Shown one piece after another: positions 1 through 38,634 of a stretch of 64,000 bases of DNA. Numbering within the stretch: the first letter of the stretch is position 1; the number at the start of each line of letters is the position of its first letter. The stretch comes from a virus. The position numbers and the translations under genes are program-made. A model generated the notes under the pieces. The model searched no databases, was not told the origin of the DNA, and saw only the letters and a program-made list of their open reading frames with translations. The stretch lies in the IMG/VR virus record IMGVR_UViG_3300045988_125278. The stretch is one strand, 5' to 3'.

Positions 1-1159
1 TTTTATGATATCAGCTTCAATTTCAAGTCGCTCTAAATAATTTTTATTATCATAAAGTTGCTTTTCTTGTAAAGCTTTAATACATTCATTTACCCAATAT
101 CGTTCTTGAATATTGTCGCTATTAATTAAAGAACAGATAATTGGATATTTATCAAACCAATTTGAAGGAATGAATCCTTTCTTGTAATCCTTTACTTCAA
201 CTTTTGGAATAATTTGTTTTCTTTCTAATGAATAAAAAGAAATTTTATTTTGGATCTCTTGAGTGTTATCAAGAATCCAATTTATCAATTCTTTTCCTGT
301 TTTATTATCTTTATCCCAATCATTAGCATAAGGTTCCATTAATTCAAAAATTTCATCACTTGTCATTAAGTAAGTAAATTTATAAAAATCGTCAACCTCT
401 CTTTCTCCTGGCTTAGAAGTAAGATATGCTTTATGAATGGGTCTATCTTCTTTAGTTAAATAATGCGCATCTGTTCCAACTACCATTTTTAAATCAAACG
501 CCTTGGCGATTTGATAAATTTTATGATTTACAATTATTTGCTCAGCGTCAGTAGATGGCGCACATTCAAGATAAAAATCATCTTTTCCAAATACTTTAAT
601 ACAAAAATTGATATAATCAATTATTTGATTGTAATATTTAGTTTGAGTTTCAATATCTTTATTTAATTCTGCTTGGAACATTGGTAAAATACAGCTACCG
701 AGTTCTCCACCAATACAAGCAGTTGTTGCTATAACATGCCCTTTATATTGTTCCATTACCATTTCAAGTTCACTTTTTAAAGTAGGAACTCGTTCCATAC
801 GTCTATCAACATAACTATGAATCCAAGCAATAGAACTTAATTCTCTTAATGCTTTATGTCCGATGGCATCTTTAGCAATAAGAATAAAGTGGTAATATTT
901 TTGTCCGTTATCTCTTGTATCAGTGAGATAAATTTCATTACCAAGAGCAATAGTAAAATCAGGATTTTCTTCTCTTATTTTTTTTGCATATTGATTTACT
1001 TCCATATGTGCAGAAAGACATTCATGGTCTGTAATGGCGATGCCCGATAATCCTAATTCTATTGCTTTATCAATTAGTGCTGTTGGTCGATTAATACAGT
1101 CAAAGTAAACGGAGATTCGAATACATAGTATGTGAATGGCAATTAAAATATGATCTCAT
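1..1159 (-). CDS. DNA polymerase III alpha-like PHP-domain protein, N-terminal part (partial; continues beyond window start); ATG frame stops after 19 aa and the body continues in the +1 frame
   Basis: Minus-strand translation gives PHP motifs: HSHTMYS in the ATG frame (ATG 1157-1159, GGAGG RBS at 1168-1177), then ...RPTALIDKAIELGLSGIAITDHE...YHFILIAKDAIGHKALRELSS... in the +1 frame after CUUUGAC (1100-1106). Confidence 0.5.
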
Positions 1160-1198
1160 TCTAACTCCGACCCTCCTTTTATTTTAATTTATATTTAT

Positions 1199-1227
1199 AT
1201 AATATCATATTATTTAATAATAATCAA
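1199..1227 (-). promoter_or_regulatory. sigma70-like promoter TTGATT-N17-TATTAT for the DnaE-like gene
   Basis: hexamers on the minus strand; followed by GGAGG RBS. Confidence 0.5.
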
Positions 1228-1477
1228 ATCGAGAGATATAATTATCGCATATACTACGAATATCTCTTAAAAAATCAGCAAAATCTTTTGATCGAGTCGC
1301 TATCTTATGTATATTATCATGAACCATAGAATTTAACATATCTAATTCTACATTTAAGTCATGGGTAAAAAGTTCTAAATTAGAGGTTAAATCCTAAGCT
1401 AAATCCGCGTCTTTAAGAAACATATTATTTTCAAGTATAGCGTTAATACTTGAATTTAAATTAGATGTATTTAACAT
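1214..1477 (-). CDS. hypothetical protein (one in-frame TAG)
   Basis: ORF with ATG at 1475-1477 read through TAG at 1394-1396; promoter-like TTGATT-N17-TATTAT upstream of the neighbouring gene. Confidence 0.35.
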
Positions 1478-1478
1478 A

Positions 1479-2603
1479 TTACTTCCTTATAATTACTAAT
1501 TTATCACTGGCTCTAGTAGCCATAGTATATAAATATTTTTTATGTTCTTCTCGATCAAAAGGATGATTTTCTTCAAATCCTAATACTTTTCCATATTCAC
1601 TACCTTGCGCTTTCCAACAGGTAATAGCGTAAGCATAGGAGAAATCAAGTGGAGGATCGAGGCATTGTTTATTATTTCTTAATTGATAGCATTGGCTACC
1701 TGTAAGAGTCCCTTCACCGGTGATAAGTTGTTTATAATCAATTGGAGTCCCACAAAATTTATCTCCATCGCTTAAAACAATTTGAGTAAACATATAAGTA
1801 ATAGGAACTTCTGAAATATAATAAGGGACTCGAATGTCTTCAGTATAAAAATCTTCAATAGTTCCAACAGTGCCATTAGTTAAAGCCCATACTCGGTTCT
1901 CAGACATGAAATCCCAGTTATTATGTAATCCAATAATTTTATCTCCAATTTGAGGGACATTAGGATCAAATCCTTTTCTTAATCGGACTACATTATTAAT
2001 TTTAGTTCTTGTAGCATTTTTAGCACAAATGATCTAATCTGCCCAATCATACATTTCAGGTATAACTTGACTTTTATCATATACTCTTACTTGTTTTCCT
2101 TCTGGACGATAAGAAATTAAAGATTTGCCTTCTCTAATCCACATTGAAAAACGAATAATTTCACTATCTTGCGCTTGGCGCATAATTTCATCGAGAAAAA
2201 TATGTGGTTTATCTAATACATGATTATTTTCATTAGGATCTACAGGAGGCAATTGACCAGGGTCGCCCGCGGCAATGATATAAATACCATGGGTTAACAT
2301 TAAATCCCATAATTTTTTAGGGAGCATTGATACTTCATCGACAACAATTACTTTATATTGTGCTAATTCACTGTTATCTTTTGGAAAGAATTTAAAAGTT
2401 CCGTTAGCCATCATTTTAGCTTTATATAAAAGTTTATGCGCAGTTGTTGCGTTTGGACAACCTTTTTGTTGAAGCACAGTCGCGGCTTTACCTGTAAATG
2501 CCACATAACAAACTTCTTCTTCTGGATCGACATCAAGAGCAGAAATAATAAATTTAATCAAAGTGCTCTTTCCACTTCCAGTTAAGCGTAGCCAGCAATA
2601 CAA
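1479..2603 (-). CDS. Dda/RecD-like superfamily 1 DNA helicase (body; one in-frame TAG at 2034-2036)
   Basis: Walker A GYAGSGKST, VVDEVSM (DEAD-like), C-terminal KAQGSE...TMATRA motif VI; continuous frame 2603..1479 apart from the TAG. Confidence 0.75.
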
Positions 2604-2660
2604 GTATAACGTTCATTACTTTTGTATCTGGCTACCGCAATTTTCAAACCTTCTTCTTGT

Positions 2661-3179
2661 TTACGAGTTAGAATCAAGTTTTACTTCCTCCATTTCATTA
2701 AAATCTAATTCATTTAAATTCCATAATCCCGCATGAAATTCTTTATGGCAATTAGAACATAATAAGACACATTTTTTACTCTCTTCAATTGCTTTTTCTA
2801 TTGTAATTGAATCAGAAGAAACAATGGTATCTTTTTTACTTGGGTCAATATGATGAAATTCTAGAGCAGCAACACATTTATTATATCCGCATCTATGACA
2901 TTTACCATCGTATATTTTAGTCTTAATAAGTTCAACAAATTTACCTCTAGTAATTGTTTCTCCATCGGGAACACAATTATAACAAATTTTTCGTTTGTTA
3001 GCTGATTTAGTTAATGGAGAAAATTTTTCCCCACAAATTAAACAAGTTTTTCCTACTAAACCTCTATTATATCTTGATGCTTTATTTCTACAACTATCAC
3101 TACAATATTTAGCATCTTTTCGTTTAGCATCAAATTCTTTTCCACAAAAATTACAAATTAATTTCAATTTTATCATCAC
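2661..3179 (-). mobile_element. HNH homing endonuclease gene inserted in the 5' end of the Dda-like helicase
   Basis: Zn-ribbon CxxC pairs plus HNH motif HHIDPSKK...CSNCHKEFH; own RBS AAAGGTGA; flanked by diverged direct repeats of the helicase 5' coding sequence (2616-2661 vs 3283-3324). Confidence 0.8.
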
Positions 3180-3235
3180 CTTTCATAAATATATAAGAAA
3201 GGTTCTAAATGTATTATCGGATTTTGTCAAAAATT

Positions 3236-3325
3236 TTATCCAGCTATACAAGTCCAATGCTCATGGGCGTAATAGCGCTCAACCGCAATTTTTAATCCTT
3301 CTTCTTGTTTACGAGTTAATTCCAT
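3236..3325 (-). CDS. 29-aa N-terminal fragment of Dda-like helicase (MELTRKQEEGLKIAVERYYAHEHWTCIAG*), separated from the gene body by the HNH insertion
   Basis: ATG with GGAG RBS; matches the T4 Dda N-terminus and the duplicated copy ILTRKQEEGLKIAVARYKSNERYTCIAGYA* at 2616-2700. Confidence 0.45.
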   Translation of the reverse strand: MELTRKQEEGLKIAVERYYAHEHWTCIAG

Positions 3326-3530
3326 TTTCACAGTCTCCAGGGTTTAATCTATAATATTTATTTTCATCAACTATAAAATAATCACAAGCCCATTTTAATG
3401 TTCCATAAACACCTGTTGTATGTCTATCTATGTTATCTAATTTAGAAATTAATTCTTGAGCTTTATTATAATAAGAACAATTTTCATAATTAGAACAATA
3501 ATTACATTGTTCTTTCCAGTAAATCCACAT
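3309..3530 (-). CDS. hypothetical Cys-rich small protein
   Basis: ORF track; overlapping start/stop with neighbours. Confidence 0.3.
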   Translation of the reverse strand: MWIYWKEQCNYCSNYENCSYYNKAQELISKLDNIDRHTTGVYGTLKWACDYFIVDENKYYRLNPGDCENGINS

Positions 3531-3808
3531 TAATCATGTTCTCCAATTGCTTCATTAAGAATTTGGTAAAAACGCATACAATCTCTTTCATAAAGGTCTC
3601 TAGCCACGTTTTCAGCTTCTCTTTTAGAATATCCTTTACTATTAATATACATTTCAATATCTTCCTTCATAGCTTTATAGCGAGCTAATTGGTATCTATA
3701 ACAAAGACTATCATATATATAACCTTTAGTATGTTTTTCTCTTTTTTCAAAAAATTCTAAACTATTATCGTATTTATAAGCTTTATCAATCATTTCTTTT
3801 AAATCCAT
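3530..3808 (-). CDS. hypothetical protein
   Basis: ORF; TTGACT-N17-TATTAT promoter at about 3833-3861. Confidence 0.4.
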   Translation of the reverse strand: MDLKEMIDKAYKYDNSLEFFEKREKHTKGYIYDSLCYRYQLARYKAMKEDIEMYINSKGYSKREAENVARDLYERDCMRFYQILNEAIGEHD

Positions 3809-3871
3809 AATATTTTTCTTCTTTCTTCATTTATATTTATATAATACCATATTTTAATTATTTAGTCAAAT

Positions 3872-4318
3872 TTAGAATATAATAAAGTCATTATTTGTAT
3901 TGTCAGCTTTAATTATCATAGGCGGCCCAAAAGAAATAGTTTTTGTGCGTGGTTGATTAGATTCAGAAAAAATTTCAGATTCAAGTTTTTCCCCAAAAAT
4001 TTCTAAATCACTTTTTTCATTTGACTTGTCGGTTTCTTCGTCTGTTCCCGGTTCGGACCAGTATCCTTCTTCTTTATAACCAGTAGTGGAAGCTTTAATC
4101 CATATGTCTGCTAATTTATTTAATACATCAAATAATTTTTCTTCAGAAGAAATTCCTAACTTAGCCAATTGATTGTTTATTTCATCATTAGCTTTTTTAT
4201 ATTCATAACTATAAGATGCTAAAGTTCTTGAAAGCTTTCTAAGGGCTTCGCCCCCTTCCTCTGGGCTTGATTGCCATATCATATTGATATCACTATCATA
4301 ATAATTAAGTTTTTCCAT
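3872..4318 (-). CDS. hypothetical acidic protein
   Basis: ORF; hairpin terminator of upstream gene at 4343-4376. Confidence 0.35.
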   Translation of the reverse strand: MEKLNYYDSDINMIWQSSPEEGGEALRKLSRTLASYSYEYKKANDEINNQLAKLGISSEEKLFDVLNKLADIWIKASTTGYKEEGYWSEPGTDEETDKSNEKSDLEIFGEKLESEIFSESNQPRTKTISFGPPMIIKADNTNNDFIIF

Positions 4319-4342
4319 AATTTACTCCATAAATAAAAATAA

Positions 4343-4376
4343 TGGCTATATGAAGAAATAAATCTTCATATAGCCA
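4343..4376 (-). terminator. hairpin terminator
   Basis: tggctatatgaag...cttcatatagcca inverted repeat + A/T run. Confidence 0.5.
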
Positions 4377-4381
4377 TAAAA

Positions 4382-5221
4382 TTAATTAGTAAAATAATTA
4401 TAAGCAATGGTCGCATTCTTTTGTCTTTGATTCAAAGAACTTGACCCGCAACGCTCATAACATTTCGCAAATGCTTTCGCAACTTCTTTCTCGTCATTTA
4501 AATTTAAAAAAGAATTAAAATTAAATCCTCTTTTATATGAAGAACCAAAAGTATTAAATTCATATTCAATAGTATTTATTAAGAATTCACATTGTGAATC
4601 TAAATTAGAATACCAAACACTTGGATATCCTTTACTCCATTGACAAATTCCATAATAATATTTATTAGAAGCAGTTGGCTGTAAGGATAAAGTATGTCCG
4701 CCACATTCCGCCATCATATTACCTAAAATGCCAGCGCAAACCGCGTCATTCCAACCTTGGTCTTTCATATAAAGCCAAATTTCTGTCGCTACTGGATAAA
4801 TAGATAATTTATCATTCCATTGAGAATTAATTTCGTTTAAACGATTTTGATAAATTTCTAAATATTCATTAGCAGTTTCATATTCTTTTTTAGCAAATTC
4901 AATAATAGGATGATTTTCATCATATCCTAGTGCTCTTGTTGCTTCGGCTAAGTCATGAGCGCTATTTACAATCTCTTGATATTCTTGGATCAGAGATTTA
5001 AGTTCTTTACGATTAACTGTATCGCTAATTTCTCTACTCATAGGCTCCATATCAGCAGTTTCTTCTGTTAAGAAATTATATACAGTTGATGATTCAGAAG
5101 GGATGTAAGCTTCCGAAAAAGTAGTAATTTCGCTATAATTTAAAGCAAGAGCAGATGTTTGTAAAATAAAAATTAATACAAAACAAATAATACTTCCTGC
5201 TAAAATCTTATATCTTTTCAT
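4382..5221 (-). CDS. secreted lysozyme-like peptidoglycan hydrolase (phage tail lysozyme family-like)
   Basis: N-terminal signal/TM segment; AGILGNMMAECGG...YGICQWS motif resembling the phage tail-lysozyme domain also present in the endolysin at 29030-30330. Confidence 0.45.
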   Translation of the reverse strand: MKRYKILAGSIICFVLIFILQTSALALNYSEITTFSEAYIPSESSTVYNFLTEETADMEPMSREISDTVNRKELKSLIQEYQEIVNSAHDLAEATRALGYDENHPIIEFAKKEYETANEYLEIYQNRLNEINSQWNDKLSIYPVATEIWLYMKDQGWNDAVCAGILGNMMAECGGHTLSLQPTASNKYYYGICQWSKGYPSVWYSNLDSQCEFLINTIEYEFNTFGSSYKRGFNFNSFLNLNDEKEVAKAFAKCYERCGSSSLNQRQKNATIAYNYFTN

Positions 5222-5394: not shown

Positions 5395-7023
5395 CTATTC
5401 AGAATACAATTTCTCGTATTCCTCCTCGGACGACTTAAACTTGATTAAACTGATGCCATCTGGCATAGTTATCTTCAAGGTAGGATTTTTATCTTTTGAC
5501 ATTAAAGTTAAGTTATTTGATGCAACTTTTACTCCTTCAACGGCAATAGATGCTTCTTCTACCCCTTGGCCCCAAAGTGGTTTAAGTTGAGCAATATCAA
5601 TGATATCTTTTCCAACTAAATCATTAGTGTGATAAATAAAATCAACACTATAAATTGGGGTGAAATCAAAATCTTGTAAAGCAGAATTCGCATATTCAAT
5701 AAATTTATCAAAATTATCATCAATAATACCAAATCCAAAAGCGTTAGGATGTCCTTCCGCATACATAATTAGATTTGATTTTTGACAAAATTCTCTAAAG
5801 TCTTTAAGTGCGGATTTGTCGTATCCTCTGCCGGAGCCTTCCCAACAAATTTGTTGAGTTTCTTCATCTATTGTTTTATTAAGAATTAAAACAGGACGTT
5901 GATATTTGCTCATTAATTGATTGGCCATTAACCCAGTCAAATTTTTGTCAGCAGCAAATCCATCTAACTTAATTCCTAAGATTTTATTACTTAAAAGATT
6001 TTGATTTACGATTATCTATTCAATTTTTTCCAAGCTAGTGTCTCTGATTTTAGTTTGCCTATTCTTGATATTAGTACAATTACGACAAGCTTGTTCTACT
6101 CTTGTTTCTGCTTGACCTTTACATCCACGTTTTGTTGAAGGGACAAGTTCGTATCCCTTAAAATCAAGCATTGACTCGAATAGCATGAGCTTTTCTTCTT
6201 GCGTCCCAACACGAGTAGTTGCATTAACTAAAGGAGCAATATAGAAAGCTACTCCAATAGGCGTAATCTCATTATTAAAATGAAACTAATCTCTATTGAT
6301 TATGCCTCTGAAGTAAGGATTGGTGATTTGTTGTAAGCCTTTATTAATTAAATGTTTTGTTTCAAAATCACGCATATCCATCATGTCGGCCACCATTCCA
6401 AGAGCAACTAAATCCAATATATGATCCGCATACCGAACATTCATAAGTTCATCAATATAACAACAAAACTTATAAACCATTCCTACACCAGATAAAGATT
6501 TAGTTGGATAATCACATAATTGGTTGTTAATAATACAAGCATACTATGATATTTTATCAGCTTCATGGTGGTCTATTACCAACACGTCAATACCATTTTT
6601 ATATAAATATTCGTGTTCTAAATAATCATTTGATGAAGAATCTGGAGCAATTACTAATTTAATATCTTTATCAATACTATCTGGTATAATTCCGTGTTGT
6701 TTTCCTGCATGGACACGATAAAAAATATTGTTTTGCACAAACGCAGGAAAAAGACAGTATAAGTAATTCATGAGTGCGGCCGCCGAAGTATAGCCATCAC
6801 AATCACTATCTACCTATATAAGAACTTTGTCATTTTGTGCAATATGTTTGACGAGCATTTTTGCACCACTTTCTATTCTATCAATAGTTGCTGGTTCGAT
6901 AATGTCATCATCAGTGGTATTAAGATAATGAGGAATATCTTGTAATTTAATTCCTCTATTGGTTAGCACCTGTTCGACCGCTGAATACTGCGGGATGCGA
7001 GGGGCTTTTAGTTGATAGTCCAT
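5395..7023 (-). CDS. DHH-family phosphoesterase / RecJ-like exonuclease (TAG-recoded; may extend to about 5278 through further TAGs)
   Basis: DHH motif LVIDHHEADK; segments 6814-7023, 6544-6771, 6286-6480 and 5395-5940 are in one frame joined by TAG (cta at 6814, 6544, 6286, 5395). Confidence 0.65.
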
Positions 7024-7092
7024 AGGCTATTCAACCTCCTTTCATAATACCACCACTATTATTTAAGAATTTCTATAATTTACTTATTCATA

Positions 7093-7410
7093 TCAGTCCT
7101 CTCCTACTGGATCACCATAGTAATGATAAGCAGTATAAGGAAGGGCTTTTGTGCATGGAAAAATAATAGTTTCAATAACTGAAAGAGGAGTTTGACGAGA
7201 AATATAAGAAATATTACACTTGTGACCTCTAGCATTTTCAGTAGAAATAACTACTTTCCAATAATCTTCATTTTCAAAAACTATAGAATAATGATTGATA
7301 GATTTATTTTTTTCTATTGGTTTTATACCCATTGCTTTATATTGTTCTTCAATTCTTTCTAATTGTTCAGTTCCTTCAATGAAAGTATTACACCAAACAA
7401 TACCTGTCAT
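7093..7410 (-). CDS. hypothetical protein
   Basis: ORF. Confidence 0.35.
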   Translation of the reverse strand: MTGIVWCNTFIEGTEQLERIEEQYKAMGIKPIEKNKSINHYSIVFENEDYWKVVISTENARGHKCNISYISRQTPLSVIETIIFPCTKALPYTAYHYYGDPVGED

Positions 7411-7697
7411 AAACCACTCTCTCCCATCTTATGTCCTAATGGACAAATATGAAAAAGAACAGGAATTTCCATTTCCGTATATCCTTTTTCTAAATCTCCA
7501 TTATACCTAATTACTTTTCGAGTTTCAATTCCACTTGAGATACAATTACTGGTTTTATCATAATATTTATTACATTTATCACAATAAATACAATTTCGGA
7601 GCAAACTATCTCTTTGTTTTTTTAATCCTTCAATTTGCGCACTCAATGAAATAATTGTATCATTTATAGAAATAGGAATATCATAATCATCATTCAT
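7407..7697 (-). CDS. hypothetical Zn-ribbon protein
   Basis: CxxC...CxxC pairs. Confidence 0.35.
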   Translation of the reverse strand: MNDDYDIPISINDTIISLSAQIEGLKKQRDSLLRNCIYCDKCNKYYDKTSNCISSGIETRKVIRYNGDLEKGYTEMEIPVLFHICPLGHKMGESGL

Positions 7698-8797
7698 ATA
7701 AATATCCTTTCCTTATATAATTGTAAAAATTTTTCTTTACCATCATCAATTGGTGAATCTTTGTATTTTGTAATCATATTTTTATCAAAAATAAAAGATA
7801 TAAGCACATCATTTTTAAATTTAGTTCTAATCTTTAAAAGATTTAATTTTAAGTGTTGAAATTCTGCGTCTCCAATTTCTTGGAATTGCCTATCAAAAGC
7901 AATTATAATTTCTTGCGCACCACTATCTAATAATAATTGAATTTGATGCGAAGAAACATTACTTCCGCAACAAGCTACTGATATATTGTTATTCCAACCG
8001 AAATCAGTAGCATATTTCAATACTGATTTTTCACTTTCAAAAATTATTGCTTTTTTCATTATGCCAATGGCATTTTTAGACCAATTTAATCCATATAAGT
8101 TCATTCCAAGAGGATGATTATATAATTGATTATTTATTTTCATTGGTCTATATTTCCCATATAGCTCCGCCTCGTCTTTGCACATAGTGCGTCCGCGCAA
8201 CCCTACAAATCTTCCACTAATATCATAATGCGGAATTGTAATTTGATCGGCTCCTGGATAAAAACCAATACGCGCTTTATTAATTACTTCTTGAGAAATC
8301 CCCTCATCAAGCCAAGGAATTATTTTAATATTATAATTTAATCTATTCAAAATAGAATCATCATAATCTTTTAAAATAATTTTATTATTTTTTAATTCAA
8401 TCTCTTGAATACGAGAATAATTTGATAAAATTTTCCAATCATCTAAAGTTTTACCCATGTCGTCATCTTTTATCATACCTGATAAACCAAAGCGACGAGC
8501 GACCCATAAAACTGAATCATTTAAATCAAATTCTTCATCATATTGAATTTTCATTACTTTAGAACATAATTCAAAAATATCAAAAGTTGAATCACATCCT
8601 GTATAGCATTTAAATAATCCTGTATTTTCATAAAAATAAAGTTTTCTGCTACCTTCTCCAGGAGGATTATGACAAATGGTGGAAGAGAGAATCCCGAATT
8701 CTGTATATTCAGGATCTCCGCCCCATTCAATTAATAAATCATAAATATTTTCAAGCCCAAGAGCTTGACGAATTTCTGATTTATCAAATACTATCAT
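7694..8797 (-). CDS. DNA primase (DnaG/T4 gp61-like, Zn-finger + TOPRIM)
   Basis: CHNPP...CYTGCD zinc finger; TOPRIM-like IIFESEKS and IIIAFDRQ. Confidence 0.7.
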   Translation of the reverse strand: MIVFDKSEIRQALGLENIYDLLIEWGGDPEYTEFGILSSTICHNPPGEGSRKLYFYENTGLFKCYTGCDSTFDIFELCSKVMKIQYDEEFDLNDSVLWVARRFGLSGMIKDDDMGKTLDDWKILSNYSRIQEIELKNNKIILKDYDDSILNRLNYNIKIIPWLDEGISQEVINKARIGFYPGADQITIPHYDISGRFVGLRGRTMCKDEAELYGKYRPMKINNQLYNHPLGMNLYGLNWSKNAIGIMKKAIIFESEKSVLKYATDFGWNNNISVACCGSNVSSHQIQLLLDSGAQEIIIAFDRQFQEIGDAEFQHLKLNLLKIRTKFKNDVLISFIFDKNMITKYKDSPIDDGKEKFLQLYKERIFI

Positions 8798-10219: not shown

Positions 10220-11252
10220 GCTTGTATGAATATAGTCATGGCACGTTATTCTTATATTTCTATAAGCGCTGACTATCTCTTACCCTCTAAGTAAATAGAG
10301 AGGAAACCATTTCGGCATTTAACTCACTTCGTTTCCTAAAATGAGACTACGTATCAATAGTAGCCCTACTTCCCCGCCCGGAAGGCCTGGGGAATAGTCG
10401 ATACAGGTTATTTAGACGTTTTTCCAAGTTCTTTTATTAATTATATCAGCAATTGTACCTTTAGATACACCATATTTTTCTGCTAATTTGTCATAAGATA
10501 AATTTGTTTTTTCTCTATCTTCTCTAATTTGTTTAACTATATTAGCAGTTAACTTAGTATGGCGCCCTTTTTGAAATACTTCTGGCATAATTAATCCATA
10601 TCTTTTTCCAGTCCAAATATTTAAAAATGAATTATAATGTAATCTATTTACATATTTCTTTTTATATATTTCAGTAGGACTTTCTTTATTTAGATATGCT
10701 TTTCTTAATTCAATAACTTCTTCCTCTGTTAATTTAGCCTAACCCCAAATTTCTTTTTTTCTATATTCTAATGTTTTTGGCTTTTTACAATTCTTTCCGC
10801 CATCTTCAACATTATATCCATTGGGGACTTTTGAATTAAATTTATTTATATAATATATTTCAAGATTATTTAAAATCTCTACATCATCAATATCCTAAAC
10901 TAAGATTTCATAAGAGAAATTTTCATAACCATATTTTCTAAAAGCCTAATGTAACAATGAATTATACTCAATACTTTTAGGATTTTTATAATTACTTTTA
11001 TGACATCTAAATCTCTATTCAGGATTTATTGTTTGACCTATATATTTTTTATTATTTATTTTATTAGTATAACAATAAATAATACCCATTTAATCACTTC
11101 CTTCATTTTTATATGAAAGAAGTCAGAAGTTATTTGACTATAATCGTCCAAATTTTCCCACGGGATTCCCATGCGTTTTCCGTTTAGGGTTCCCCGTTAG
11201 CCTATTCATTTAAATAGACCCCTAGCGATAACTAGGAAAAGTTTTTCATTAT
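10220..11252 (-). mobile_element. group I intron (family copy A, boundaries +/-30 nt) in the DnaB-like helicase gene
   Basis: Splits a contiguous DnaB homologue; conserved core blocks shared with copies B and C (AAAAACUUUUCC..., GGCUAACGGGGAA, AAUCCCGUGGGAAA, CCUGUAUCGACUAUUCCCC...GGGG hairpin, AGAUAGUCA S-like element); contains a GIY-YIG ORF. Confidence 0.6.
10422..11089 (-). mobile_element. intron-encoded GIY-YIG homing endonuclease (4 in-frame TAGs)
   Basis: MGIIYCYTNKINNKKYIGQT...INPE(TAG)RFRCH...YGYENFSYEIL; NUMOD-like C-terminus. Confidence 0.8.
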
Positions 11253-16640: not shown

Positions 16641-17897
16641 CCGCGTTTAATATGTTGTTTCCAACGGTCAGCAATATTGCAAATTATTTTATAATTTTGA
16701 CTATCTTTTACTGTTAAAATTTTAACAGGAAACCATTTCGGCATTTAAAGGACTTCATCTCTTAAAATCCTACTACGTATCAATAGTAGCCCTACTCCCC
16801 TGTCCAGAAGACCGAGGGGATAGTCGATACAGGTTCTTTGATTAACGTGCTGGATAATCATAATTTTTTATAAGATATGACTCTCCTTTATTAATTTTAC
16901 TAACTGTATCACGATGTATATTATATTTAATACCAATATCAGACATTGATTTAGAACTATTTCTTAAATCTGATAAAATATTTTTTACTTCTTCAATAGT
17001 AAAATTCTGATTATTCCTAACATTTTTATTTCTAATAGGATAAATATAATTACCATTTTCTTTAAATAAAGTTCCTTGATTAATTGCTCTAATTACCTTT
17101 AAAGGGACTTTATACTTTTGAACTAAATCTGTTTCAATCTATAAATCCCAACGATACAATAAATCTTCCTTTAAATTTAATAATTCCTATTCATTAAGAA
17201 AATAATCTAAAATATTATCTTTTTTCGCAAAATCATGATTATTTTGTCTTAATGGATATGAAAGATTTGGATTAAAATATGTATTTCCTTGAGATATATT
17301 CAAAATAGTATTTTGACTAACTTGATATAAATTAGCAATATCTTTATAAGATAATTTAGTATTATTTATTAACAAATTTATAATTTCATTTAGTTGCTAT
17401 TCATTGAATTTAGAATTACAATTTTCTATTCCTCGTTTGCCAGAAACATTTCCATTTTTTAATATATTATATCCTATTGTTTTATCTGTAGCATTATAAA
17501 AATTAATCCATTTATCTTCTATCTCATCAAGCTATAAAATATCAGAGACCTATTCTAATATTTCAATTGTAGCTTGGTGTTTTTTTAAAGCCTAATCACA
17601 AATTTGAATATTTTTATGATTATGTTCATTGGCTCTAGACTAAATATTTAAAGCCTAACCAATATAAATTTTACCATTATCATAATTAATTTTATAAATA
17701 CCACAAATTTTTAAATTGTCATTAATGTTAGTAATCATTGTTGCTTCCACCGTCCTTCTATATATTTTTAATTTTTATGGAGGATGGATTAATCAAAGTT
17801 TCCCACGGGATTGATTAAAGTTAATTTTCCCCGTTAGCCGGCCATTTCCAAATTTTGGTAATTGACAGACCCCACTGATTAGTGGAAAAGTTTTTCA
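16641..17897 (-). mobile_element. group I intron (family copy B, boundaries approximate) interrupting a GIY-YIG-domain gene
   Basis: Shares 5' and 3' core blocks with copies A and C; separates the GIYKITNLENQMCYVGQA half from the R..H/ENF..E half of one GIY-YIG domain. Confidence 0.55.
16852..17738 (-). mobile_element. intron-encoded GIY-YIG homing endonuclease (about 8 in-frame TAGs)
   Basis: MITNINDNLKICGIYKINYDNGKIYIG(TAG)A...; HTH/NUMOD-like C-terminal repeats. Confidence 0.75.
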
Positions 17898-24030: not shown

Positions 24031-24990
24031 TGACTAGTTCTTCGCTCCGGCTAACGTATTAACTGCCATCATCACGCCTACCTTTTTGAAAGTATGTATC
24101 AATAATACTTCCTACTCCCCGACAAAGGGGATAGTCGATACAGGATTAAACTACGATATTTTTCCAATTCTAATAACTCCATATATTTGTAAAAGAACCA
24201 TATGTAAGTTTATTAGAATAATCTTTATAAACTTCTCTTATATTTTCTCCATTTTTACGACGCAATCTTATTTGATAAACATCTTGTTCGGTCATTTTAG
24301 AGCGTCCATTTTTACTTCCCTAATTAGAAGTATTATGTTTATGAAAATTTTTATTTTCAATTGTATATACTTCTGGCATAATATTTTTCCAAGTATCACC
24401 ATTCCAAATTTTATGGAAGCCAGATTCACCAATTAAATTTTTATAATCTTCATAAACTTCATTTTTTCTTTCTTGATTATTATAACGAGTTCTAATATTA
24501 ATAACATCTTGTTTAGTTAATTTATGACTCGGATGACTTTCTTCAGTATTAAATTGCCCTCCAGGAGTCATATTATACTAATCAGGATAAGTATTATAAT
24601 ATTTTATATAATACTATTCTCTATCATTAAGTTCTTCGATAGAACATTCTTCTAATATCTCAAAAGAAAAATTATTTATTCCATATTCTAATATATCTTT
24701 ATATAACTTTTTATTTTTTTCTCTATACCAGTTATATGATTTTTTATGTTCTCTAAAACGCTATTCTATTTGTGTGCTTTGTCCTATATAAGATAAGTTA
24801 TTTATTTTATTGGTTATTTTATAAATACCAATCATTTTAATTACCTCACTAATTATAAGTAAGATAATATCGTAGTTCTTCCCACGAGATTATCTCCACT
24901 AATATTTAACGCTCATTCATTTCAATTTTTCCTGAAATGTCCTAAATATTAGCAAGACTGCCTCGTTAGCCGCCAACTGGAAAATTTTAC
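24000..24990 (-). mobile_element. group I intron (family copy C, boundaries approximate) in the GyrB-like topoisomerase gene
   Basis: Splits the GyrB homologue; conserved blocks CUUUUCC-hairpin, GGCUAACGAGGCA, AAUCUCGUGGGAAG, CCUGUAUCGACUAUCCCC..GGGG hairpin, ACUAGUCA. Confidence 0.55.
24157..24835 (-). mobile_element. intron-encoded GIY-YIG homing endonuclease (about 5 TAGs)
   Basis: MIGIYKITNKINNLSYIGQSTQIE(TAG)RFREH...YGINNFSFEILEEC. Confidence 0.75.
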
Positions 24991-26798
24991 CAATTCGCGA
25001 CCCCGCCGATCAGCGGAAAAGTAGGTAAGGGCCAGACTTCCTCGTACCCTTTCATACGTCCTAACTCAAAAGATCGGTTCATAGTTTTTCTGAATGTTTC
25101 AAGAGCAACGTCATCTTTAAGATATTTAATATTCGTGCCCCAAGTCGCTTTATAAAGAGGTGGAACCGCCGCGTAAATATAACCTTTTTTAATTAATTCA
25201 GGCGCAAACTTCCAAATAAATGTAAGAAACAAAATACGAATATGACTACCATCAACATCGGCATCCGCTGTAATAATAATCTTACCATAACGTAATTTGG
25301 ATTCATCTACAATTACTTTACCATCTTTAACTTCAAGGCCAAAAGCATCAATCATCGCACTAATTTCTTTATTTCCTAACGCTTTGTGCAAATCTGTCTT
25401 TAAAGTATTAAGAATTTTACCTCTTACGGGTAAAACTGCTTGTGTATTGCGGTTGCGAGCTTCCTTAGTGGGGCCTTCTGCGGAACGACCTTCAACAATA
25501 AAAATTTCACATTCGCTCCTATTTTTACTATTGGCATCACTTAATGTGCCGGGTAAAATAGTTCTTTTCTTCGTATCAACTTTACGAACGGTTTCTTTAG
25601 CCTTTTTCGCTTTTTCACGGGCCGCACGCGCCAACATTGCCTTATCTACAATAGCTTTAGCATCTTTTGGATTATTGTCAAGCCAAACTTTTAAATCTTT
25701 TGATACAAGGCGTTGAACAATAGTTCTTGCTTCACTACTGGATAGAACATCTTTAGTTTGACCAGAGAAAACCGGGTCAGGCATAATAAATGAAAGAACA
25801 AGACTTAATCCTTCTTTGAGTTCTTCACCAGTGATATTAGCATCTTTCTCTTTTAAAAGACCTTTATCACGAGCGTATTCATTAATAGAAGTAGTAAGTG
25901 CTGTTCTAAAACCGGTTAGATGTGTTCCACCACTATTAGGAATTGAATTAGTATAAAGTTTATAAGTATCGCTATAGGTATCATTATACTCCATAGCAAT
26001 TTTTACACCAATTCTATCTTCAATATTTTCAGTATAAAAAATTGAAGTAAGAGAAGTTTTATTGCTATTTAAATCTTTAATATAATCAAGAATACCATTT
26101 TTTGAAGTAATTTCTTCTTCTGGCTTATCAAGATAAGTAAAATGAAATACCATACCAGGAGAAAGATAAGCTAATTCTTGAATTTGTTTTCTTAAAGCAT
26201 CATAATCAAGAAGAATACCTTCTTTAAAAATGCTTTCATCTGGTAAAAATTTAACCCAAGTTCCAGTCTCTTTACCGGCCCATTTTTCTTCTTGATAATC
26301 TTTTAATTTTCCTTTTTCAAAAGACGCAACAGCATGTTTACCATCGCGGAAAGATGCAACTTGAAAATAACGAGAAAGAGCGTTAGTGGCTTTAGCGCCA
26401 ACGCCGTTCATACCGCCAGATGTATTATATCCAGTTTTTCCATTACTGTCAAATTTTGCACCGGTATGAAGTTTAGTATAAATATTTACCAATGTTTCAC
26501 TACCGTCTTTAGCTTTTCCAAAAGGAACACCACGTCCATTGTCGCGGATTTCAACATAACCATCTTTAGATACTGAAATATCGCAACGAGTACAATGACC
26601 ATTTAAATATTCATCAACTGCGTTTGAAATAATTTCAAGAGTAATATGTTTAACTCCATCAGGCCCAGTAGAACCGATGAACATACCAGGTCTAAGACGA
26701 ATTGCTTCCATCCCTTCTAAAGTTTTTATATCTTTAATACCATAATCATCTTTTCCTCTTTTGAGGATAATTTCTTGACTCAATCTAAATACCTCCAA
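24987..26798 (-). CDS. type II topoisomerase GyrB-like subunit (ATPase + TOPRIM), 5' exon; TTG start
   Basis: GHKL ATPase region HITLEIISNAVDEY...GMNGVGAK; TOPRIM IVEGRSAEG; frame ends in intron sequence at 24987. Confidence 0.8.
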   Translation of the reverse strand: MEVFRLSQEIILKRGKDDYGIKDIKTLEGMEAIRLRPGMFIGSTGPDGVKHITLEIISNAVDEYLNGHCTRCDISVSKDGYVEIRDNGRGVPFGKAKDGSETLVNIYTKLHTGAKFDSNGKTGYNTSGGMNGVGAKATNALSRYFQVASFRDGKHAVASFEKGKLKDYQEEKWAGKETGTWVKFLPDESIFKEGILLDYDALRKQIQELAYLSPGMVFHFTYLDKPEEEITSKNGILDYIKDLNSNKTSLTSIFYTENIEDRIGVKIAMEYNDTYSDTYKLYTNSIPNSGGTHLTGFRTALTTSINEYARDKGLLKEKDANITGEELKEGLSLVLSFIMPDPVFSGQTKDVLSSSEARTIVQRLVSKDLKVWLDNNPKDAKAIVDKAMLARAAREKAKKAKETVRKVDTKKRTILPGTLSDANSKNRSECEIFIVEGRSAEGPTKEARNRNTQAVLPVRGKILNTLKTDLHKALGNKEISAMIDAFGLEVKDGKVIVDESKLRYGKIIITADADVDGSHIRILFLTFIWKFAPELIKKGYIYAAVPPLYKATWGTNIKYLKDDVALETFRKTMNRSFELGRMKGYEEVWPLPTFPLIGGVANW

Positions 26799-27529
26799 AT
26801 ATAATTTTTATGGGTATTTCTTTTACCTCTACAAACAGCGGATATAGTAGAAGAATTTCCTCCACAAAATTGTGCTGCTAATTGTAAACTATCGAATTCT
26901 TTTATAAGATTATTATTTTTATCAAATGCTCCTACTTTACGGCTTGTTTTTATTATTCTATTAGACTAAATTTGATTAGTCTTTTTTTCAGGTTCAATAA
27001 TTTGATTTTCTTCATCTAAAAATCTAAATATTCTATTTCCTGTAGTTAGTCTAATCCCATTACATACATTACTAATTTTAAATCTATCTAAATTAGTCTA
27101 TTCTCCCGCTTCAGCCAATGAATTCCAAATATTTAAAATATTTTTATCTTTATCAATTTCACAAACTTTTTTTCCATATTTTTTTCTTTTTGTATTACTC
27201 ATTTTTGAAGCAATTTTAGGATCAAACATAGGACTTTCTGTATTATCAGTCTAATTATATCCTTTTGGAAAAATACAGTCTTCTTTAATAATATAATCAT
27301 GCTCTATTTTAATCATATCTTCCCAATTTTTAGCATTACTAATAATTTCAAATGTAAAATTATCTATCCCGTATTCACGGAAATCTTGCATCAGTGGATA
27401 ATTATAATGATGATCTTTCGGATTTTTAGAAGCTCCAATATGATGTCTCCAACGTCTATGCACATCAATCGAAGAACCAATATATATTTTATTATTTATT
27501 TTATTAGTAATTTTATAAATTTGATACAT
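26781..27529 (-). mobile_element. free-standing GIY-YIG homing endonuclease (3 TAGs) overlapping the topo gene start
   Basis: MYQIYKITNKINNKIYIGSS...HRRWRHH...YGIDNFTFEII; C-terminal NUMOD/IENR-like repeats. Confidence 0.75.
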
Positions 27530-37825: not shown

Positions 37826-38565
37826 TTAATCACCTATCCTTTCCCATTTTCGTCCACCAACTTTGCTATATCTACTTGATCCAGCGAGACATTTACTTAA
37901 ACTACTTCGATCTACTTTTTCTTTTCGAGCAGCTTCGCTAATACTATCATAGTAAACAATATCATTTGGGTTATTTATATTAATTCCTTTTATTTTGGTA
38001 CGTCTTTTTCGAGTTTTTGCTTTTGGAATTATAACATTATTATTTTCATCCAATGATCGAAAAATTAAATTATTACAACTATGAGCTTCTCCATCACATA
38101 TTTTTTTTATTGTCGTAGCTCTTTTATCGCCATCCCACCCTTGAGCTCTTGCAGCTTCATGATAAGAACTATAAATAGAAATAATTTCATTCTATTCATT
38201 TACTAAAGCACATTTTTTACTAATTTTTTTTATATGCTTTTGAGTATTCTCAAGAGTGATAATATTAGATTTAGTATTTTCAGTCTAATTATATCCATTA
38301 GGACATAAAGAATTATATTTTAAAATCATTTGATGCTCATAAGTTTCCATCGAATTAACATCATTAAAATCATTTCTTAAAATTTCAAAAGTAAAATTTT
38401 CTACTCCATATTTTCTAATAGCACACTATAAAGGATAAAAATAATTTGAATTATTTAGATTAAAAGCATTATTAATGTGCTATTTCCATCTAGTTTCAAC
38501 ACGAGTACTTGAGCCTATATAAGATTTTTTATTAATCTAATTAGTAATTTTATATACAACATTCA
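37826..38565 (-). mobile_element. free-standing GIY-YIG homing endonuclease (about 6 TAGs)
   Basis: MNVVYKITN(TAG)INKKSYIGSS...YGVENFTFEIL; C-terminal NUMOD-like repeats. Confidence 0.7.
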
Positions 38566-38634
38566 TTTATTAATCACTCCTTCATATATTAATGAGAAAA
38601 TAATTAATAAAATTAACACTTCTTGACCCACAAT

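Follow-up and report, generated by a model that had tools for sequence, protein, structure and literature searches.

To our knowledge, very few natural systems of efficient programmed translational bypassing are known. The bypass of phage T4 gene 60 and its mobA HNH endonuclease cassette were reportedly described by Bonocora and colleagues in 2011. Here, we analyzed a Dda-like helicase gene whose 5' end is interrupted by an HNH endonuclease gene in a 64,000-nucleotide (nt) stretch of viral DNA, the IMG/VR record IMGVR_UViG_3300045988_125278 (hereafter the window). Comparative sequence evidence suggests that the HNH gene belongs to a mobile cassette in the helicase gene, and that the short stop-containing gap in the Walker A codons is very probably skipped by a short programmed translational bypass.

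In the MobA elements of T4-like phages, the HNH gene and an N-terminal segment overlap out of frame; this segment resembles by homology the target sequence that was replaced, and the bypass follows it (bioRxiv 10.1101/2022.08.31.505936). This segment, named 'HomR', is the counterpart of the second, cassette-borne helicase 5' end in the window (copy 2). The MobA bypass insert protects against MobA and persists after the loss of the endonuclease (Manning & Atkins 2022, bioRxiv 10.1101/2022.08.31.505936), and the 2022 survey found bypass cassettes in topoisomerase genes only (bioRxiv 10.1101/2022.08.31.505936). The helicase locus resembles gene 60/mobA in that an HNH gene lies in a conserved replication gene, with the insertion within an invariant motif, and overlaps out of frame with an element-borne N-terminal segment (by 17 nt here and by 8–32 nt in MobA elements). 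A stop stands directly after the putative take-off codon, the putative landing codon is matched or wobble-matched, and the bypass site is kept in genomes without the endonuclease. However, the target is the P-loop of a Dda-like helicase instead of the Toprim domain of the topoisomerase II large subunit, and the gap measures 5–10 nt compared with 50 nt in gene 60 and 20 nt in the shortest MobA case. The helicase cassette lacks a take-off stem-loop in the gap, a mini Shine-Dalgarno, and a dedicated nascent-peptide signal; its hairpin is located entirely 5' of the take-off codon, the tRNA at take-off would be that of Ala rather than Gly or Asp (GGA or GAY codon), and the recipient 5' end is left as a 29-codon stub, unlike the functional ORF1. 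The helicase cassette, likened to gene 60/MobA by layout alone, is an analogue in organization and not a member of that family.

Weiss and colleagues are said to have reported synthetic 'stop-hops' and +5/+6 hops in E. coli in 1987. No natural in-frame stop-hops are known, and short-range counterparts of gene 60 have 'long been presumed' (Atkins et al. 2016, PMC5009743). As in the synthetic stop-hops, peptidyl-tRNA at the helicase locus would quit the codon before a stop and re-pair with a matched or similar codon a few nucleotides on, and in the 6-nt class GCC TAA GCA GGC, nine nucleotides would specify one amino acid. The synthetic hops are engineered and of low efficiency, whereas the hop proposed here would be natural, conserved, and needed for an apparently essential enzyme. 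In the mitochondria of the yeast Magnusiomyces capitatus, 81 'byp' inserts of 27–55 nt have been found (Lang et al. 2014, cited in PMC5009743). These are likewise short inserts in conserved genes skipped by translation, with landing pairing at two of three positions tolerated, but they are mitochondrial, present an unused codon instead of a stop to the A site, and have no link to an endonuclease. The free-standing homing endonucleases of T-even phages (Seg, Mob) perform intronless homing with co-conversion of flanks, and immunity is conferred by differences in the target sequence. The helicase endonuclease gene also adjoins its target gene, but the immunizing change here would be a frame-breaking insert that is rescued in translation. 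Bypassing or hopping in phage helicases was looked for in the searchable literature, and no prior description was found.

The interrupted helicase gene and its relatives

The helicase locus lies on the minus strand, as do nearly all genes of the window (32% GC), and its coordinates are given on that strand. The predicted product is a Dda/RecD-like SF1B helicase with Walker A and B motifs and a UvrD-like C-terminal domain (Pfam AAA_30, 3e-23; AAA_19; UvrD_C_2, 3e-12; PDB Dda 3UPU, 5e-16; RecD 3E1S, 3e-13). At the junction, the letters read GCT (2587..2585) TAA CT (2584..2580) GGA (2579..2577) AGT GGA AAG AGC ACT, and the frame break at the Walker A motif that the initial annotation of this locus had described was found at 2587..2577. 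The coding gap, TAACT (2584..2580), consists of the stop codon TAA (2584..2582) and CT and contains the putative landing triplet ACT (2582..2580). The same annotation had regarded TAACT as a 5-nt insertion relative to an intact gene, and its deletion in silico restores the canonical CIAGYAGSGKST and a 397-amino-acid (aa) protein with 97–98% full-length identity to intact homologues, which begin MELTRKQEEGLKIAVERYYAHERWTCIAGYAGSGKST in the databases. The gap-removed P-loop aligns without gaps with that of T4 Dda (...VTINGPAGTG(K)TT...) and of the intact 397-aa homologues. The helicase body extends from 2579 to 1479, with GGA as the resume codon (Gly32, the first Gly of GSGKST) and the stop codon TAA at 1481..1479.

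Comparison with relatives lacking the HNH gene delimits the insertion. In one such relative, L001, collinearity with the window extends to ...GCTGGATA, where homology stops at window position 3237, and resumes at GGAAG...; the intact allele of the L001 type carries ...GCTGGATATGCGGGAAGCGGAAAG.... The inserted DNA extends from 3235 to 2580 and replaced the 4 nt TGCG of L001. The HNH gene is present in the window, L002, and L003, and absent from L001 and L034–L041, which are otherwise collinear. L002, an independent assembly, is 97% identical to the window over 2 kb with 63 substitutions and no indels, and its junction reads GCT TGA CT GGA. The junction is GCC TAA CC GGA in L003 and GCC TGA AGGCA GGC ACT GGT AAA in L004, whose HNH gene is 84% identical, while in L010 the HNH gene is reduced to its last ~45 nt and the gap is retained (GCT TAA CT GGA). 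Since the break is found in diverged independent contigs with stop-preserving substitutions, an assembly artefact is excluded. Between the window and L002, the HNH gene has diverged to about the same extent as the helicase body, indicating that the gap was already present in their common ancestor. A blastn search of 50,697 phage records for cultured relatives found no close relative of the region and no gapped allele, and the best N-terminal match among those records, Enterococcus phage VRE9_1, is intact (IAGFAGTGKT). L001 also has an extra open reading frame (ORF) of 214 aa between the helicase and the next gene (7198..7842), which is not in the window or L002 and may be another mobile insertion.

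On the minus strand, a 73-aa ORF is followed by a 29-codon ORF, a 56-nt spacer, the HNH gene, the second helicase 5' end, the junction, and the helicase body, and all the sequence features of a helicase 5' end interrupted by an HNH gene with helicase codons on both sides, as first described, are present. The 29-codon ORF (copy 1, 3325..3236) runs from ATG 3325 to the TAA at 3238..3236, as originally placed, and encodes MELTRKQEEGLKIAVERYYAHEHWTCIAG; it is truncated by the insertion after GCT GGA TA. Copy 1 is 96–100% identical to intact relatives, whose N-terminus (P0001–P0004) is MELTRKQEEGLKIAVERYYAHERWTCIAG continued by YAGSGKST, and the collinearity of L001 with the window identifies it as the recipient's own 5' end, the parental helicase stub. 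The left cassette end (3235..3180), comprising the spacer and the ribosome-binding region of the HNH gene, is found in L002 and L003, not in L001; a promoter and terminator scan of 1300–3700, which includes this end, yielded nothing above chance. The HNH gene (3179..2661) encodes ~168–172 aa from the candidate starts GTG 3179, ATG 3176, or TTG 3167, and its stop codon (2663..2661) lies inside copy 2, in agreement with the initial annotation; its 3' end overlaps copy 2 by 17 nt, out of frame. A strong Shine-Dalgarno sequence, GGAGGA (2691..2686), stands 8 nt 5' of the TTG start (2677) of copy 2 (2677..2585), which carries helicase codons 1–31, encodes (M)ILTRKQEEGLKIAVARYKSNERYTCIAGYA, and ends with the putative take-off codon GCT (2587..2585). 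The sequence of copy 2 had been quoted correctly, but its placement at 2616–2700 was ~25–35 nt off. A hairpin (2635..2588) is predicted directly 5' of the take-off codon.

The two copies share an 82-nt cross-match of 73–77% identity (BLAST E 1e-8 to 1e-12) with a 37-nt core of 89–95% identity, in agreement with the DNA repeat reported in both. Of the proposal that the locus arose by homing with target duplication, the part concerning an HNH homing element with its own copy of the 5' end is supported, but the duplication is not quite accurate, since copy 1 is the recipient's own 5' end and copy 2 a diverged, element-borne, HomR-like replacement. A diversity-generating or shufflon-type origin of the duplicated 5' ends was rejected on inspection of the sequence, which showed no A bias in the differences and no inverted repeats.

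A second in-frame stop in the helicase, TAG at 2036..2034, is aligned with an invariant Gln, is read as Gln, and is explained by the reading of TAG as a sense codon genome-wide. Elsewhere in the window, chains of same-frame ORFs are broken by TAG only (e.g., 7026..5395 and 63493..62075), and TAA and TGA still act as stops. The six tRNA genes of the window (Cys, Lys, Gly, two Ser, and Thr, at 55.9–61.4 kb) include neither a suppressor tRNA nor a tRNA-Ala. Public gene calls shorten the helicase in cassette genomes, e.g., to 311 aa in L002 (6001..6936, P0005), starting from an internal Met past Walker A. Gapped helicases are thus misannotated in protein and metagenomic phage catalogues.

Conservation of the gap, the hairpin, and the cassette

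Gapped helicases were collected in three scans. The pattern TGTATYGCTGGCTACGC, with no constraint after the Ala codon, retrieved 20 helicase loci from IMG/VR, and a stop codon and a short gap precede the Walker A codons in all 20. A protein-similarity scan, in which the gap was not selected for, retrieved 80 helicase loci; Walker A is recognizable in 79, among which 69 are intact ([IV]I[AS]G[YF]A followed by G[ST]GK[ST]T, with constant length) and 10 are gapped. The third scan used a pattern of the hairpin arms and GCN-TRA on viral, genome, and metagenome collections. Pooled over viral, metagenome, and metagenome-assembled genome (MAG) collections, the scans gave 120 gapped loci with 86 distinct junction contexts and 41 distinct gap strings of 5–10 nt. 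Gaps of 5 nt occur in 34 contexts and are all T[AG]AC[CT], and those of 6, 7, 8, and 10 nt occur in 11, 19, 21, and 1 contexts, respectively.

The gap starts with TAA in 58 of the 86 contexts and with TGA in the other 28, and the stop is kept through TAA-to-TGA changes between close relatives. The take-off Ala codon is GCY in 83/86 gapped contexts compared with 25/52 intact genes (P=3e-11), in which the same codon is GCG (13), GCA (14), GCT (19), or GCC (6). Among the 37 gap strings of at least 6 nt, the last triplet is GCN in 24 (3% expected from composition) and belongs to {GCN, ACN, TCN, GTN} in all 37 (19% expected per string). The third base of the ACN landing triplets is Y in 6/7 strings, although ACA makes up 29% of Thr codons, and this ACY bias at a mismatched landing site fits re-pairing better than the decoding of Thr. 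In the 5-nt class, the landing triplet must begin with the A of the stop codon and is ACY throughout. Every gap class (5, 6, 7, 8, and 10 nt) yields the same canonical P-loop if skipped, and a single P-loop results from all gap lengths only if the gap is skipped. A Shine-Dalgarno sequence, GGAGGAAGTA(A/G)A, precedes the helicase in most gapped alleles examined, also where the HNH gene is absent; a few carry the variants GGAGAAGTAAA or GGGAGGAAATAAA, and L016 has none.

The gapped helicases are under selection at the protein level. Between the window and L002, the body shows 36 synonymous differences and one non-synonymous (ratio of non-synonymous to synonymous substitution rates, dN/dS, 0.006), and between the window and L003, 56 and one, respectively. 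In 30 pairs of gapped alleles with dS of 0.08–0.64, the body dN/dS is 0.004–0.1. The helicase body has been under strong purifying selection since the common ancestor of the window and L002. In one clade of close relatives in which no HNH gene was found upstream, the gap string varies (TAACC, TGACC, and TGACT) and the body is constrained. The N-terminal 31 codons are conserved as in intact helicases (dN ~0–0.014). Among 32 distinct reconstructed gapped genes (46 loci with a body of more than 1,000 nt before de-duplication), 29 encode 381–417 aa and have no other defect. The exceptions to this range include L022 (IMGVR_UViG_3300045988_168855, gap TGAGTT), whose helicase stops after 138 aa and may have a further interruption, and L128, whose 747-aa reconstructed reading is possibly a fusion.

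An inverted repeat, GUAGCCAG(AUACAA)...(UUGUAU)UG-CUGGCUAC, is present in all gapped alleles, and its 3' arm ends at the nucleotide preceding the take-off codon. In 37 gapped alleles, the 57 nt 5' of the take-off codon have a mean minimum free energy of -19.1 kcal/mol (z -4.4), compared with -8.2 kcal/mol (z -0.3) in 52 intact alleles, and the two sets do not overlap (P=1e-15). In this structure, 90.8% of the cells are paired, compared with 21–45% for slid-partner controls. Considering only the loci of the protein-similarity scan, all eight distinct sequences have the hairpin (-16 to -21 kcal/mol). GCC (Ala) stands at codon 16 in 37/37 gapped alleles, compared with 2/52 intact alleles, which mostly have Glu, and Gly29 is GGY in 37/37 and 27/52, respectively. 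AGA/ATT and CGA/ATC co-vary (P=3e-6), and lineages with ...ATA TCT GGC... form a continuous helix in a different register. The hairpin is a feature of gapped alleles alone and has been conserved in the face of synonymous drift.

The HNH ORF matches PHROG 2255 'HNH endonuclease' (E=9e-24) and, in tblastn, annotated HNH endonucleases; its Pfam HNH_2 score of 20.4 bits is slightly below the cut-off of 21, and its HNH motif reads EFHHIDP...CSNCHKEFH. In the 1.5 kb upstream of the helicase, HNH homologues were found at 30/93 gapped and 0/65 intact loci (P=1e-8), and they occur with every gap-length class. Between L003 and L010, dS is 0.05 in the N-terminal segment and 1.3 in the body, and L030 and L032 have an identical N-terminus with a body dN of 0.48. 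The near identity of the 31-codon segment and gap (dS ≤0.05) across saturated bodies (dS >1.3) indicates that they move horizontally between divergent helicases. Intact and cassette alleles occur together among 98–99% identical phages in one sample.

A short ribosome hop and its alternatives

The cassette would have replaced the recipient sequence at the Walker A codons and brought in four parts, i.e., the HNH gene, diverged helicase codons 1–31 with a strong ribosome-binding site, the hairpin, and the short coding gap. Translation would initiate at TTG 2677 and proceed through the 31 codons until the ribosome pauses, with GCU (2587..2585) and its peptidyl-tRNA-Ala occupying the P site while UAA stands in the A site. 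The tRNA would then release, the mRNA move by 5 nt, and the tRNA re-pair with ACU at two of three positions, and decoding would restart at GGA to give the full-length helicase with the P-loop ...CIAGYA-GSGKST.... The predicted junction peptide is YTCIAGYAGSGK, without the extra residues of YTCIAGYATGSGK or YTCIAGYALTGSGK. In general form, peptidyl-tRNA-Ala on GCY would re-pair 5–10 nt downstream on an Ala or near-Ala triplet and resume at G[ST]GK[ST]T. Recent work argues that pairing of the mRNA on exit from the ribosome drives the forward bypassing of gene 60. By analogy, refolding of the GC-rich hairpin, which has an 8-bp outer stem, may pull the mRNA forward and may limit the hop to ~5–10 nt, the re-zipping of the outer stem as a driving force being a conjecture. 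At the DNA level, the gap may disrupt the HNH target in the conserved P-loop codons, which would make carriers immune and leave intact alleles open to cutting and conversion; we infer this target specificity and immunity from the P-loop insertion point and the MobA precedent.

Several points weigh against this bypass. The landing triplet ACU of the window class matches the take-off codon at two of three positions only, there is no internal Shine-Dalgarno near the landing site, and no gene 60-like nascent-peptide signal is evident, E16A being the sole consistent residue difference from intact alleles. The GCN landing codons may have been inherited from the Ala31 codon of the recipient instead of being selected, and their codon usage is similar to that of the intact Ala31. 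RNAalifold on 51 hairpin sequences recovered the invariant outer stem only, with no compensatory pairs, and double changes occur at only two pairs of the structure; the covariation support for the hairpin is modest to weak because the register of the inner stem differs between lineages. The patterns of the first and third scans include the hairpin arms, and the hairpin statistics are biased because part of the loci were retrieved with these patterns. In addition, the sequences are related by descent, and the P values therefore overstate their independence. How a hairpin ending at position -1 would act in a 5-nt hop is a matter of conjecture, and the evidence for a single product across the gap is indirect, namely purifying selection on the body.

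Other explanations of the break were weighed against the short bypass. The ribosome might instead skip the stop and spacer (+2, +3, +4, or +5 nt) and decode the last gap triplet, giving ...GYA-T-GSGKST in the window, i.e., one small residue added to the P-loop, which would be Thr here and Ala, Val, or Ser elsewhere. In every gap, the last triplet does encode A, T, V, or S, and the substitutions seen in the window gap (TTA/TTG/CTA, ACT/ACC) are synonymous in the helicase frame too. However, this would require four skip lengths without tRNA re-pairing, for which no mechanism is known, and would add a residue to GxxxxGK[ST], a motif of invariant length in the 69 intact homologues and relative to Dda. 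It also leaves unexplained the dominance of GCN (24/37), given that Gly and AGY Ser codons never occur, as well as the ACY bias (ACA being 29% of Thr codons) and the restriction of the take-off codon to GCY, and is considered improbable. That the helicase is made in two pieces, with a 31-residue peptide ending at the stop and the body starting from the internal TTG 2603 (MYCWLRLTGSGKST...) or by re-initiation, appears quite unlikely. The helicase frame is open from 2612 and includes TTG 2603, and a comparable TTG exists in the 7-nt class, but no Shine-Dalgarno precedes this TTG, which is a by-product of the conserved codons ACT TGT. Moreover, two pieces are impossible for the in-frame 6-nt class, in which the stop lies in the same frame right before the P-loop with no start after it; the conservation of the 31 N-terminal codons (dN ~0–0.014) is that expected of part of an enzyme, and a P-loop divided between two chains is implausible. 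The split helicase suggested by the initial annotation is likewise unlikely, as the downstream piece has no start before Walker A and the P-loop would be cut in two.

Selfish disruption, in which a dispensable helicase was inactivated and is a decaying or tolerated pseudogene, would be in line with gene callers reading the helicase as broken (P0005, 311 aa) and with the parasitic nature that homing elements can have. This explanation, and with it the pseudogenization first proposed, is contradicted by the body dN/dS of 0.004–0.1 past the gap over 30 gapped pairs, by the 29/32 distinct reconstructed genes of 381–417 aa without other defects, and by the TAA or TGA kept in 86/86 contexts, and can be given little credence. 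An equally small probability is assigned to removal of the 5–10 nt from the mRNA by hairpin-guided cleavage and ligation or an intron-like element. The conserved hairpin does abut the gap, but no Rfam intron or ribozyme was found at E ≤10 in 1000–4500, and the conserved stop and matched flanking codons are signatures of translation, not of splicing. We know of no splicing system that removes 5–10 nt. A sequencing or assembly indel in the window, which had been raised as a possible cause, has nothing in its favour besides the frame break itself and is a negligible concern, since the same break recurs in 120 loci from many projects and assemblers with stop-preserving substitutions.

Further candidates were also rejected. 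A programmed +1/-1 frameshift, also among the earlier suggestions, fails as a general mechanism in view of gaps of 5, 6, 7, 8, and 10 nt, which represent three frame relations including one in frame; by inspection of the sequence, there is also no slippery heptamer, and tRNA-Ala would be unable to re-pair at -1. Stop readthrough is ruled out by the mixed gap lengths. A group I or II intron containing the HNH ORF was dismissed because an Rfam scan of 1000–4500 gave no intron or ribozyme at E ≤10 (chance matches only), because the HNH gene lies 5' of a complete, separately initiated 5' segment, and because the 5-nt frame break is retained in the absence of the HNH gene. Ribosomal bypassing as in T4 gene 60, which the initial annotation had listed among its possibilities, is the reading that the comparative sequence evidence supports.

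Endonucleases, a second recoding site, and implications

Homing endonucleases are unusually abundant in this genome. Six GIY-YIG (Seg-like) endonuclease genes, several with NUMOD domains, were identified with Pfam in the 64 kb, all on the minus strand (61243..60599, 38566..37826, 27529..26780, 24835..24146, 17750..16842, and 11089..10412), together with a GmrSD_N and HNH protein (54773..53592, minus strand). Among the tRNA genes, at 57154..56579 (minus strand), lies an apparent paralogue of the helicase HNH protein (…CILCKEKF…QFHHRDPKEKEF…CANCHAEVH), recognized as similar by eye, with no Pfam match at 1e-3. The core of the helicase HNH gene (2694..2907) shares 70–84% DNA identity with HNH genes of very different phages, which is more than expected at such distance; these include Yersinia fHe-Yen9-04, Synechococcus S-WAM2, Prevotella Lak phages, Xanthomonas XbC2, and T5-like Salmonella phages.

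Gapped helicases were also found in GTDB genome contigs of 22–175 kb (L140–L147) from human and ruminant gut, in MAGs assigned to Gemmiger, Mollicutes, Anaeroplasmatales, Clostridia, Bacilli, and Clostridium. The contigs are probably of phage origin and mis-binned, and the MAG labels hint only weakly at Firmicutes-type hosts.

A DNA polymerase III alpha gene with a PHP domain (1159..1, minus strand, ATG 1159) has its frame broken at CTT TGA C (1105..1099), the core of a prfB-type +1 frameshift site, and a +1 shift restores ...YSNLRLL continued by DCINRPTALIDKAIELG.... The 18-nt core TTACTTTGACTGTATTAA occurs with diverged flanks in polymerase genes of seven other viral contigs (L212, L213, L215, L217, L218, L220, and L221), and the polymerase genes of L001 and L002 have the in-frame CGT CTA TTA GAT TGT at that site. 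Judging from these sequences, CUU UGA C in the polymerase gene is probably a second recoding site in the window. Contigs with the polymerase site can carry an intact helicase, and the two polymorphisms therefore segregate independently.

The helicase gap is most likely overcome by a short programmed translational bypass carried on a mobile HNH cassette, a previously undescribed form, as far as the literature searches show, of a known but very rare kind of system that is highly tractable by experiment. The at least 41 natural gap and landing variants, together with the upstream hairpin, constitute a ready mutational series for take-off, slide, and landing. The locus illustrates how, with neither intron nor intein, a homing endonuclease can invade an essential enzyme at its most conserved motif. 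Taken together, the comparisons lean somewhat toward a joint interpretation in which the helicase gaps would be the first natural family of short-range stop-hops and the second HNH-linked bypass cassette, which is like gene 60/mobA only in organization and is suspected to be of independent origin, and in which re-zipping of the hairpin may set the 5–10 nt hop. The cassette may then represent a general strategy in endonuclease-rich gut phages, whereby frame-breaking immunity inserts in essential replication genes would be tolerated through recoding.

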